DNA of 64,000 bases, from assembly GCA_965218795.1 (NCBI GenBank), contig OZ244653.1, positions 2,272,001 to 2,336,000 on the forward strand, read 5' to 3'. Within the stretch, counting starts at the first letter, position 1, and the number at the start of each line of letters is the position of its first letter. The position numbers were made by a program, and so were the translations under genes. This DNA comes from a bacterium. GTDB taxonomy: Bacteria > UBA8248 > JACPRG01 > G963555815. Below are positions 48,166 to 55,266 of the stretch, piece by piece. Under the pieces are notes generated by a model. That model saw only the letters and a program-made list of their open reading frames with translations. It ran no database searches and was not told the DNA's origin.

Positions 48166-48240
48166 TGGCTGGGGCGGGAGGATTCGAACCTCCGAATGCT
48201 GGATCCAAAATCCAGTGCCTTACCGCTTGGCTACGCCCCA
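48166..48240 (-). tRNA. tRNA-Gln (TTG)
   Basis: TGGGGCG TAGCCAAGCGGTAAGGC A CTGGA TTTTGGA TCCAG ... GGAGGTTCGAATCCTCC CGCCCCA GCCA cloverleaf with encoded CCA. Confidence 0.97.
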
Positions 48241-52208: not shown

Positions 52209-52684
52209 GGCTTCATCCTTCTGACACGGTCCAAAAGCGCCGCAAACGCTTTCCGGACGTCCTCATTCGGGATCTTCGAAAGGGCTTCCTGGGACTCTGC
52301 GGGATTCGGGACGCGCGTGGCGTACCACTTGCGCCGCTCCTGCACCCTTCCCGCCGGTAAGGGGTCCTCTTCGTCCTCAGGCTTGAAAGGCCCATCCGCC
52401 TGTCGAAAATATATCCGGTCCAGGGCCGCCTTCCCGACGGCTTCATTGAGGGCCCGGCGAACGGATTCACGCATATAGACCATCTGCTGGAGCCAAACCG
52501 GATCCCTCACGTCTACATAGAGCGTACGGCCTTTCACTTCTACCGGATTCGCCATTTCAGCGACCGCCGGGCCGACGACATCCTTCCACCGCCGCACCAC
52601 TTCATTTCGCTCCAGACCCGGACCCCAGGACGCCGAACGCGTCAATCCTTTCAGAATCGAACCGACAGAGCAGAAACCGCTCAT
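52205..52684 (-). CDS. DUF721 / DciA family protein
   Basis: WKDVVGPAVA...P...LYVDVRDPVWLQQM. Confidence 0.85.
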   Translation of the reverse strand: MSGFCSVGSILKGLTRSASWGPGLERNEVVRRWKDVVGPAVAEMANPVEVKGRTLYVDVRDPVWLQQMVYMRESVRRALNEAVGKAALDRIYFRQADGPFKPEDEEDPLPAGRVQERRKWYATRVPNPAESQEALSKIPNEDVRKAFAALLDRVRRMKP

Positions 52685-53433
52685 ATCTCGATGACCCGTC
52701 CTTCGGACTTCAGGTCGTCTACCATTTCGGCAATGGCTGCCATGACATGGTCGACGATCTTCTGGCTGGTCTCTTTTGTCGAGGGAAGCCGGTACAACGC
52801 CTCCATATCCAGCGGGGGACCGAACCGGACACCGAGGTCCTTGCCGATATGGGGACGAGCGCTATCGGGCGTCACGGCTTCGATGGTCCCCCAAACGGCT
52901 GTGGGGATGATGACCGGCTTGGCCAGGTGGATGAGGTGGCCGACTGGACGCTTCCCGGGCAGGAGCACGCCGTCCATGCTCCGGGTCCCCTCGGGGAAGA
53001 GCAATACCGAGGAGGTCTTCATGGCTCGTACAATCTGCCGCATGGCTCGAAGGTCTCTGCCCGTTCTGTCTACGAAAATCGTGCCATAGCTCCGGAGGAT
53101 GCGTCCCAGAACCGGGACCTGATTCAACTCGATTTTTGCGACGGACTGAACCAGTCGCTTGGGAAAACGCCAGAGAATGGCCGCGGGTATCAGGAGCGGA
53201 TCGAGATCAGAGATATGGTTGCTGAGAAACAGGACACCGCTCTTTTGTTCGGGGATGTTCTCCAACCCCTCGAACCGGGCCCGATTTGCAATCTTGAGGT
53301 AAGAAAGAATAACGAACCAACAATACCAAATCCATAGAAACCAACCGATCTTCCGGAGGCCTCGTGGTTGCGTCCAGGAAGGGGAATCAGGCTTGCTGAC
53401 GACAGCACTTTTTACCGAGTGGGTCATGTCCAA
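52681..53433 (-). CDS. plsC: 1-acyl-sn-glycerol-3-phosphate acyltransferase family protein
   Basis: NHISDLD, FVDR, FPEGTRS. Confidence 0.88.
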   Translation of the reverse strand: MDMTHSVKSAVVSKPDSPSWTQPRGLRKIGWFLWIWYCWFVILSYLKIANRARFEGLENIPEQKSGVLFLSNHISDLDPLLIPAAILWRFPKRLVQSVAKIELNQVPVLGRILRSYGTIFVDRTGRDLRAMRQIVRAMKTSSVLLFPEGTRSMDGVLLPGKRPVGHLIHLAKPVIIPTAVWGTIEAVTPDSARPHIGKDLGVRFGPPLDMEALYRLPSTKETSQKIVDHVMAAIAEMVDDLKSEGRVIEI

Positions 53434-53892
53434 GGAGATTGTTGGGTATTGATTTCGATTTGAGACTCCATCCTCGCACGCCCGACTCGCCTCAAATCAT
53501 ATCATATTCAGGTCCGCCTCGAGCCCGACCAGGGCTCTTGGTCGTGGGCCGTTTCGTTGAACGGACAGGACCTTATCGGGTTGTAGCCGCGATCCGAGCG
53601 CAGGGTCATCGACCCCAGAGGAAATTGTGGCGGGGCTTGCCCCGATCTCCGCTCCTCCGAGGGTCTTCGCTCGGATCGGAACTGCGTCGGAGAATCATCG
53701 GGCCATCCACAAGACCCGGCACAGTGCTGAAACTCGTCGCAAACTGACCCACTACCGGGCTTTTATCACATAATTTGTCACCGTCCAACGATTCGGAACA
53801 AGTTGCGGGGGATCCTCTCTTGTGCTATCGTTGAATACGTTGGAATGTCCCCAGCCGTTCCCTACATTTTCAGATGGACTCTTCGGTCTTCC

Positions 53893-55266
53893 ATGCCAAG
53901 TGTCAACGCCGAGATCTTCAGGGAGTACGACATCCGGGGTGTCGTGGATGAGGATCTGGATGTCCCCACCGTACGAGCCATTGGACGGGCAATCGGCACA
54001 TACCTTCACCGGGGAGAGGGCACGACCTTCGCAGTCGGTCGGGACGTTCGGCTGAGCTCGCCGGCGATTCGCGTCAGTCTGATCGATGGGCTCCGGGCAA
54101 CGGGCGGTCGTGTCAGCGACATCGGCATCGTTCCGACACCGGTCCTGTACTTCGCGGCCGTCCATTTGGAAACGGACGGGGCCGTGATGGTGACCGCAAG
54201 TCATAATCCTCCTGAATTCAATGGGTTCAAGATCAGCCGGGGTGTCGAATCCCTGAGCGGAGATGAGATACGAGCGCTCATCCGGATCATCGAAGGACGC
54301 CAATTCGCTCAGGGCAACGGCCAGGCCGTTCGTACGGAGGTCATCGAAAGCTATCGCGAGATGCTGAACTCCAAGTTCTCTTTTGATTCATCCCTGAAAG
54401 TCGTAATTGACGGCGGCAACGGGGCGATGGGGGAGCTGGCGGTTGCGGTCATCGAATCCATGGGGCATCGGGTCATCCCAATGTACTGCGAGCCGGACGG
54501 CAACTTCCCCAATCACCACCCGGATCCTTCGGATGAAAAGAACCTGAGGGACCTGATTGAGGCCGTTCACCGGGAGGAGGCCGATCTCGGCATCGCTTTT
54601 GACGGCGACGGGGACCGAGTGGGGGTTGTGGATGAAAAGGGCGAGGTCATCTGGCCGGACTACCAGATGATTCTCTTCGCTCGCGATGTACTCTCCCGTC
54701 ATCCCGGGGCCCCCATCGTATTCGAGGTGAAATGCACGATGAACCTGCCCCGGGCCATCGAAGAAGCGGGAGGCCGGCCGGTGATGTGGAAGGCTGGACA
54801 CTCTTTGATCAAGAAGAAACTCAAAGAGGAATCCGCCCCGCTCGGCGGAGAGTTCTCCGGCCATACCTTCTTTGCCGATGATTATTTCGGTTACGACGAT
54901 GCCCTGTACGCGGCCCTTCGCCTCATGGATTTACGGGCCCGGGCGCAAGCGCCCATGTCGAGTTTATTGCGCGACATTCCGAAGCTGTACGCTTCCCCCG
55001 AGATAAAACTCGGCTGTCCCGACGACGAAAAGTTCGAAGTCGTCCAAGGGCTTCGGGATCGGCTGGAGGGTGAAGCCCCTCTCATCACAATCGACGGGGT
55101 TCGCGCGGATTTCGGAGACGGTTGGGCCCTGGTGCGCGCTTCCAACACGACACCGGCCTTGACTGTCCGGTTTGAAGCCGCTTCTGAACAACGCCTGGAG
55201 GCCATCCGCGAAATCATGTTCGGGCATTTGAAAACGTTCCCCCAACTGGAAGGTATCGATGATTAG
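53893..55266 (+). CDS. phosphomannomutase/phosphoglucomutase (AlgC-like)
   Basis: FREYDIRG, TASHNP, FDGDGDR, GEFSGH, LVRASNT. Confidence 0.95.
   Translation: MPSVNAEIFREYDIRGVVDEDLDVPTVRAIGRAIGTYLHRGEGTTFAVGRDVRLSSPAIRVSLIDGLRATGGRVSDIGIVPTPVLYFAAVHLETDGAVMVTASHNPPEFNGFKISRGVESLSGDEIRALIRIIEGRQFAQGNGQAVRTEVIESYREMLNSKFSFDSSLKVVIDGGNGAMGELAVAVIESMGHRVIPMYCEPDGNFPNHHPDPSDEKNLRDLIEAVHREEADLGIAFDGDGDRVGVVDEKGEVIWPDYQMILFARDVLSRHPGAPIVFEVKCTMNLPRAIEEAGGRPVMWKAGHSLIKKKLKEESAPLGGEFSGHTFFADDYFGYDDALYAALRLMDLRARAQAPMSSLLRDIPKLYASPEIKLGCPDDEKFEVVQGLRDRLEGEAPLITIDGVRADFGDGWALVRASNTTPALTVRFEAASEQRLEAIREIMFGHLKTFPQLEGIDD

Follow-up and report, generated by a model that had tools for sequence, protein, structure and literature searches.

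The 217 nucleotides at 53540-53756 of the window (by which we mean the whole stretch of 64,000 nucleotides analysed) are very probably a decayed and immobile composite mobile element of the non-autonomous kind, namely a MITE carrying a REPIN; this reading is drawn from the sequence and from its comparison with related genomes. DDE-type transposases bind terminal inverted repeats (TIRs) and create duplications of fixed length. The outer MITE would be bound at its TIRs, of about 17 nt, by such a transposase supplied in trans, and its insertion duplicated 8 bp of the spacer between plsC and the phosphoglucomutase/phosphomannomutase gene (PMM). The inner REPIN is made of two inverted REP units, which as single-stranded DNA (ssDNA) would be substrates of a RAYT (HUH/Y1); RAYTs are described, in excerpts of PMC6006769 and PMC2817692, as recognising on single-stranded DNA the REP hairpin together with its GTAG head. 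The element would have arrived by cut- or copy-and-paste of the MITE, which carried the REPIN along, and would have decayed after insertion. It would now have no function of its own and at most, possibly, a passive effect of its hairpins on the expression of plsC and PMM.

The two genes are divergent and the element sits in their spacer (Table 1). Orthologues of plsC (56-75% identity) align with it from residue 2-3 onward, so that its start is likely the ATG at 53427; the left border of the element lies about 110 nt upstream of it. With PMM as a tblastn query the identity (79-80% in four relatives) begins at residue 1, which would put the start of this gene at the ATG at 53893. A promoter-like motif, TTGCGG-17 nt-TATCGT, is found upstream of PMM at 53803-53831 and is kept in five genomes of the family. 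As this motif is downstream of the element, the transcription of PMM probably starts past the element. In contigs from two other sequencing runs the spacer of the motif carries a GGGA to TTTT change (53809-53812).

Table 1. Positions, in the window, of the flanking genes and of the parts of the probable element.
Feature	Position	Strand	Basis
plsC, PlsC-type acyltransferase	52681..53433	-	Pfam PF01553, 82.8 bits
Left target-site duplication, 8 bp, GGGCTCTT	53532..53539	.	7/8 match to 53757-53764
Probable whole non-autonomous element (MITE, 217 nt) carrying a REPIN	53540..53756	.	nhmmer profile, alignment with G003 copies, gap in G001
Left TIR, decayed, GGTCGTGGGCCGTTTCG	53540..53556	+	12/17 match to the reverse complement of the right end
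REPIN, two inverted REP units (the rod)	53583..53685	.	Folds; doublet architecture in G003 copies and free doublets
Left REP unit, GTAG head (53583-86) and imperfect palindrome	53583..53631	+	nhmmer REP-unit profile, E 5.9e-10
Right REP unit, inverted	53639..53685	-	nhmmer REP-unit profile, E 7e-07; row 53634-53688:- of alignment A1
Right TIR, minus strand reads GGTAGTGGGTCAGTTTG	53740..53756	-	Identical to the G003 consensus end
Right target-site duplication, GGGCTTTT	53757..53764	.	7/8 match to the left copy
PMM, phosphoglucomutase/phosphomannomutase	53893..55266	+	Pfam PGM_PMM domains I-IV, all four present

The borders of the element are sharp. A nhmmer profile of 16 copies matches it end to end (positions 1-215, E 5e-47), and in its alignment with 15 copies and their flanks from G003, a genome of the same family and another genus, the similarity ends abruptly at 53540 and 53756, for a unit of about 215 nt. 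The consensus end of the G003 copies is GGTAGTGGGTCAGTTTG, found unchanged at the right end here, and a small subterminal hairpin follows the left TIR up to about position 53565. The T run of the right duplication, GGGCTTTT, is the TTTT that the preliminary description had seen after a CCGGG stem. In G001, which belongs to the same genus, the plsC-PMM spacer is 234 nt long and aligns on both sides of the element with a clean gap of 224 nt, equal to the element plus one copy of the duplication. The element is missing as well from this spacer in G003, G004 and G006, which with G001 are the four relatives aligned. Because of the target duplications and the empty site of G001, the locus has the hallmarks of a MITE that would have inserted in this lineage after its split from G001. 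In the run X13, one contig ends and another begins with a 27-nt overlap placed exactly over the left end of the MITE (53539-53565), which is what a repeated end in the sample would lead one to expect.

The genome of the window is a single contig of 5.17 Mb, and the repeat was searched there and among 40 relatives. Within its own genome alone the family is barely repetitive, which counts against the reading: BLAST found the stretch once plus a weak partial match, and to these the profile search contributed one copy with an internal deletion as well as some fragments, so that the idea of many copies in this genome had to be abandoned. The situation is quite different in G003. Queried with the stretch of the window, this genome yielded the core in 16 scored places (71-82% identity; 167 candidates at first look); when the query was one of its own copies, all of the 40 scored places (202 candidates at first look) matched strongly. 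These copies are 83-99% identical to one another, which points to what would be recent bursts. Allowing two mismatches at most, the terminal 17-mer GGTAGTGGGTCAGTTTG occurs 142 times in G003, vs once for the reversed control. The ends are near-perfect inverted repeats of 17 nt, and the paired ends are spaced by 132-284 bp, which reflects size variants. Several end motifs of this genome fall within about 80 nt of contig ends.

The 8-mers flanking the G003 copies are duplicated. Once the reverse-strand duplicates are omitted (rows 31-42) 30 distinct full copies remain, whose two flanks agree at 8 positions out of 8 in twelve cases, at 7 in ten, 6 in five, 5 in two and 3 in one; 22 of these 30 copies therefore have at least 7/8. 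When left and right flanks are taken from different copies, the agreement reaches at most 6/8, and this in 17 of 1722 mismatched pairs. The preliminary description had mentioned, besides an RNA, a palindromic repeat element, and it is this second proposal that proves right: the family is dispersed, bounded by TIRs and target duplications, and the same spacer is empty in a genome of the same genus.

Three elements of the own genome have paired ends and a duplication; they measure 217, 173 and 329 bp. The 173-nt one (C1:3429108-3429280, in L002) is a second composite copy with a 7/8 duplication, from which about 40 nt, half of the REPIN, are missing. The 329-bp one (C1:3694294-3694622; L165 195-523) shares the type of ends and the right arm with the MITE and is flanked by a 7/8 duplication, but its interior is a different one, devoid of REP units. 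Besides, a 17-mer differing from the MITE end at two positions, GGTAGTGTCTCAGTTTG, occurs identically four times in this genome (C1:2069711, 2696728, 2951731 and 3761936). These solo sites share no similarity beyond the 17-mer, one of them having an inverted partner 174 nt away; they may represent a second, related MITE family. G001, whose assembly is about 3.0 Mb (93% complete) vs 5.17 Mb here, has neither a Y1_Tnp match nor an IS1595 match nor any copy of the repeat.

The central part of the element is what had first been described as a rod. All the pairings named in that description exist in the sequence where it had placed them: CGATCCGAGCG (53590-53600) pairs with CGCTCGGATCG (53668-53678) over a perfect 11 bp, and an inverted-repeat search extends these closing arms to 53590-53603/53665-53678 (14 nt, 93% complementary); the inner GACCC/GGGTC and GAGGA/TCCTC stems and the CGGGGC-TT-GCCCCG apex are present in the minimum-energy folds; AGGTCC (53510-15) with GGACCT (53568-73), GAGCCC with GGGCTC, and CCCGG with CCGGG followed by CTTTT were found as well. 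Looking at the rod by halves, each opens with GTAG, then comes an arm whose pairing partner, the return arm, lies about 35-60 nt away, and the right half is the same unit inverted. In the parts of PMC2817692, PMC3116915, PMC6006769 and PMC3733652 that bear on the matter, REPs and REPINs are defined by a GT[AG]G head, an imperfect palindrome, and inverted doublets that can fold as one hairpin. Judged by its sequence, the rod is a REPIN, more precisely a head-head heterodimer in the terms used in the corresponding part of PMC3733652.

We aligned 79 distinct REP units (alignment A1) from the window, five other places of the own genome, and related genomes. They consist of the GTAG head, a stem of 10 bp, short conserved inner motifs, the return arm and an apex which varies freely, being absent, formed of one of several mini-hairpins, or replaced by a longer insert. 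Conservation of the G-T-A-G columns is complete or at least 90%. Over its 12 pairs, the hairpin of the unit is paired in 96.6% of 930 cells; none of 500 shuffles reached the observed values, and slid partners gave 34-48%. Two pairs of the stem covary: C-G in 42 units vs G-C in 34, and U-A in 38 vs C-G in 37, with both sides changed in 35 and 37 units respectively. This covariation is that of a few ancestral stem types, not of many independent events, since copies of a mobile element share descent. The covariation whose search in relatives had been proposed is present in the family, but both unit stems of the copy in the window are degraded.

At E<0.05 the own genome contains 11 REP units. One REP-like unit belonging to this family, bordered by GTAG on one side and CTAC on the other, was also seen in a third genus (G004, L005, about 1501-1555). 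The exact head-plus-stem pattern, searched in one genome per prokaryotic species, occurs in at least 124 stretches. Among the matches listed we examined 80 loci, of which 49 come from one MAG labelled Nitrospinota and 31 from other phyla; the latter resemble the pattern at the seed and no further, as would be expected by chance for an 18-mer in 596 Gb. The 49 loci may overlap those of G003 and are not counted as independent.

These 49 loci show that the two layers of the element can be separated. Full MITEs are found at 22 of them, one MITE end at 3, the core only at 22, and 2 have no match to the MITE profile; the form in which the REPIN hitch-hikes makes therefore about half of the REP loci sampled in this related genome (22/49 full MITEs vs 22 core-only). 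Inverted doublets devoid of MITE ends account for at least 11 of the core-only loci. Conversely, G003 has a 132-bp variant (L177 51-182) with both MITE arms, in which the REPIN is replaced by a small, unrelated-looking hairpin. This hairpin loosely resembles a collapsed REP, and the variant may be the backbone in its ancestral state or else have arisen by deletion. As core-only loci exist on one side, and the REPIN-less variants of 132 and 329 bp on the other, REPIN and MITE backbone do exist apart, and the 215-nt form is, from its sequence, a composite of both.

We put forward tentatively, a little below an even chance, that a REPIN was captured in a TIR-type MITE, so that REPs of a domesticated tyrosine-transposase (RAYT) system would also spread by an unrelated transposase, of the DDE type, in a phylum (Nitrospinota by label) for which we found no REP-RAYT report. 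If this is true, REP populations could grow independently of their RAYT or, as here, survive its loss. All four components, REPs, REPINs, RAYTs and MITEs, are well documented, and only the nesting of a REPIN in a MITE that makes duplications is mildly unusual. Our literature search returned no report on repetitive extragenic elements in Nitrospinota; the papers pairing Nitrospinota with RAYT were, as far as their titles and the beginning of their abstracts tell, surveys of nitrification and communities, none of which looked relevant, and the string "Nitrospin" occurs 0 times in PMC5581495, PMC6006769 and PMC3733652.

The RAYT expected to act on such REPs is found next to them. The own genome is matched twice by the Pfam Y1_Tnp profile; the stronger match (44.3 bits, locus L021) coincides with a cluster of REP units, four of which surround the gene with their heads outward. 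Of the five matches of G003, the best (56.9 bits, L023) is flanked by six REP units of the same family, and the 6 other Y1_Tnp loci of G000, G003 and G004 have none. The NCBIfam equivalog NF047646, "REP-associated tyrosine transposase", scores 125.6 bits for L023 and 91.9 for L021 (cut-off 80), and the two proteins share 67% identity over 114 residues. In both genera the RAYT gene is directly downstream of a class-I glutamine amidotransferase gene, and in the own genome a His_biosynth-family gene comes next; the RAYT looks like it interrupts an apparent row of histidine-biosynthesis genes. Such a synteny in two genera is as expected for vertically inherited RAYTs. The G003 gene (L023 1333-1815, minus strand) is intact. 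That of the own genome (L021 1344-1821, minus strand; C1 about 3378705-3379182) is frameshifted: the HUH part (profile positions 2-121) is in one frame, and the part with the catalytic Tyr (118-145) in another. This split is due to either a pseudogene or an assembly error.

The search for the partner of the MITE was less fruitful: no autonomous element with the same ends was found at the IS1595, IS256-type and ISL3 loci or in a scan of the own genome for TIR pairs. The own genome has 13 matches to IS1595-family transposases (e.g. C1:103729-104142, 2460673-2461086 and 4967815-4968228), among them six copies that share about 99% identity over about 745 nt, and G004 has 54; this family was discarded as its ends differ from those of the MITE. 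G003 has no IS256-type gene, and its sole ISL3 fragment, lacking such an end, was discarded too. The genome-wide scan of the own genome for a TIR pair with duplication, 0.1-4 kb apart, returned nothing besides the three MITEs.

The copy of the window is a decayed one. Its two ends match each other at 12 positions of 17, the stem of the left unit is degraded to G-T pairs and mismatches, the head of the right unit is mutated to GCAG on the minus strand (CTGC at 53682-85), and mismatches or G-T pairs are present in the stems of both units. An intact REPIN of G003 folds as ssDNA into two unit hairpins side by side (z -5.0/-5.25), vs -1.7/-2.2 for the rod, which is the only form in which the REPIN here folds as ssDNA. 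The 11-bp closing stem results from the pairing of the 5' arm of the left unit with the 5' arm of the right unit. In the G003 copies this pairing carries a mismatch and a wobble, because their two units have different stem types. The perfect stem of an otherwise decayed copy goes against simple decay; chance, gene conversion or selection could account for it. Since the RAYT is broken, the partner transposon missing, and only 3 elements and 11 REP units are left, the family looks extinct in its own genome.

The insertion itself is kept in other samples, with small differences. Twenty runs from 10 studies, none of which is recorded as RNA, are listed for a stretch of 701 nt around the element, and the contigs of four of them, from two studies, were compared. 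In X11 one contig covers all of this stretch, showing 6 differences along its length; the element is covered in X13 and X14 as well, and X15 leaves 53420-53803 uncovered. None of the contigs of X11, X13, X14 and X15 joins across an empty site, so the insertion appears fixed where sampled. This retention fits a fixed relic, and is compatible with a use as well.

Such a use is the first alternative to consider, and it agrees with a mobile origin: the relic would be transcribed, either within the leader of plsC or PMM or as an antisense RNA, its hairpins altering mRNA stability, termination or the spacing of a promoter. Hairpin effects of this kind are reported for some MITEs and REPs, and MITEs adjoining genes are often transcribed and affect their neighbours, according to an excerpt of PMC3733652. 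The position of the element in a divergent promoter region, so close upstream of plsC, its retention in the contigs of three other runs from two studies, and the closing stem, perfect though the rest decayed, go in the same direction. On the other hand, the promoter-like motif kept in five genomes lies beyond the element, and G001 and three other relatives manage without it. Moreover, no sigma-70-like site was found in 53380-53950 (0.3 expected), and two of the 4 terminator-like sites of this interval are weak and located at the left end. Altogether we consider an exaptation of the relic unlikely, the most probable of the alternatives being still far behind a relic devoid of function.

It could also be argued that the outer repeats are not transposon ends, and that a REP doublet mobilised by a RAYT entered a pre-existing "target palindrome". 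REP dimers are regularly found inside long palindromes, and this reading is offered for Anabaena variabilis in the relevant part of PMC3733652; besides, versions of the backbone without REPIN and free REP doublets without MITE ends both exist. However, the outer palindrome is itself dispersed, with a different 8-bp duplication at each site, and the whole unit, ends included, is an indel vs G001. The backbone is for these reasons a mobile element in its own right, which makes the target palindrome very improbable as a rival; it reduces to the order of events, a REPIN entering a MITE, which the composite MITE-REPIN reading allows.

There remains the idea of a structured RNA. The region had been called highly structured, and dinucleotide shuffles (n=200) support this, modestly above chance, for the rod only. 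Folded as RNA, 53500-53770 (271 nt) gives on the plus strand -108.8 kcal/mol vs -98.8 +/- 5.6 for the shuffles (z -1.79, 8/200 as good), and on the minus strand z -1.45 (20/200 as good). For the rod (53585-53685) z is -1.88 on the plus strand (8/200) and -3.36 on the minus strand (0/200 as good); as single-stranded DNA it is -1.70/-2.18. The left junction (-1.39/-1.34 for plus/minus) and the right stem (-0.05/+0.44), like the region as a whole, do not stand out. The absence of any match to a known RNA was confirmed: the Rfam 15 covariance models, among which those of 6S, SRP, RNase P, tmRNA and riboswitches, give 0 matches in 53350-53950 even at E<=10, and at gathering scores the single match in the whole window is a tRNA at 48169-48240. 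It was also correct that the region contains no credible ORF, the frame of 102 aa at 53439-53747 matching no Pfam family, and for this reason a protein-coding reading is rejected. A free-standing gene for a structured RNA, 6S-like or new, would be favoured by the minus strand of the rod, better than 200 shuffles out of 200, and by the lack of ORF, but we hardly give it any credence, given the empty Rfam search, whole-element folding energies that fall among those of the shuffles, the absence of the sequence from the orthologous spacer of all four relatives aligned, its borders formed by inverted repeats and a target duplication, its membership of a family inserted at many unrelated sites, and a conserved structure which is, in the family, a per-unit hairpin of DNA type with a GTAG head, degraded in this copy.

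Annotators should record the stretch as a MITE/REPIN relic rather than pursue it as an RNA gene, and what is understood of plsC and PMM is unchanged by it. For the biology of mobile DNA, the family clearly illustrates how two non-autonomous systems can be nested within a single unit. The full, REPIN-less and free-REPIN forms, together with a syntenic RAYT intact in one genus and frameshifted in another, are a material for studying the dependence of REPs on their RAYT. The presence of the repeat near several contig ends of a fragmented relative also calls for caution in assembly.

Among the known systems, the enterobacterial BIMEs are characterised by defined linker motifs and by the binding of proteins such as IHF and gyrase. 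As in BIMEs, built on REP types Y and Z, the REP variants described here have different stems and alternate in orientation (excerpts of PMC2817692 and PMC6006769).

The inner part of the element is best compared with the REPIN/RAYT systems and REPtrons of Pseudomonas fluorescens SBW25 and E. coli K-12, as presented in portions of Nunvar 2010 (PMC2817692), Bertels & Rainey 2011 (PMC3116915) and Quentin 2018 (PMC6006769). It shares with them the GT[AG]G head followed by an imperfect palindrome and, from the same portions of these three papers, the arrangement in inverted pairs with the heads outside, foldable as one long hairpin, and the compensatory changes in stems; like REPtrons, a single RAYT gene is flanked by the same units, inverted, and it is here syntenic in two genera. 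Several traits set it apart from REPINs as these portions depict them: its units, at 34-70 nt, are long and have at their apex a mini-hairpin that varies, two stem types combine in each doublet to make it a heterodimer, the host belongs to a lineage labelled Nitrospinota, this genome has only 11 units and a frameshifted RAYT, and the copy studied arrived inside a MITE, not as a bare REPIN.

The outer part resembles bacterial MITEs such as NEMIS/Correia, ERIC, RUP and Nezha, in what excerpts of PMC3733652 and PMC3116915 say of them: a non-coding unit of 130-330 bp with TIRs of 15-30 bp and a duplication of fixed length, multicopy, intergenic, with full and empty sites between relatives. Unlike those MITEs, it has no partner IS among the families searched, and its interior is the REPIN of an HUH/Y1 system. 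The nearest precedents that we found are the REP dimers located in long palindromes, GTAG-15 of Anabaena variabilis and CGTC-1 of Halothiobacillus neapolitanus (Di Nocera 2013, PMC3733652, in part), where a doublet also occupies the middle of a conserved palindrome. In the portion of that paper devoted to them this outer palindrome is called a target, and duplications are not mentioned; here, by contrast, 8-bp duplications accompany the outer unit and REP-less variants of it exist, which makes of it a transposable backbone.
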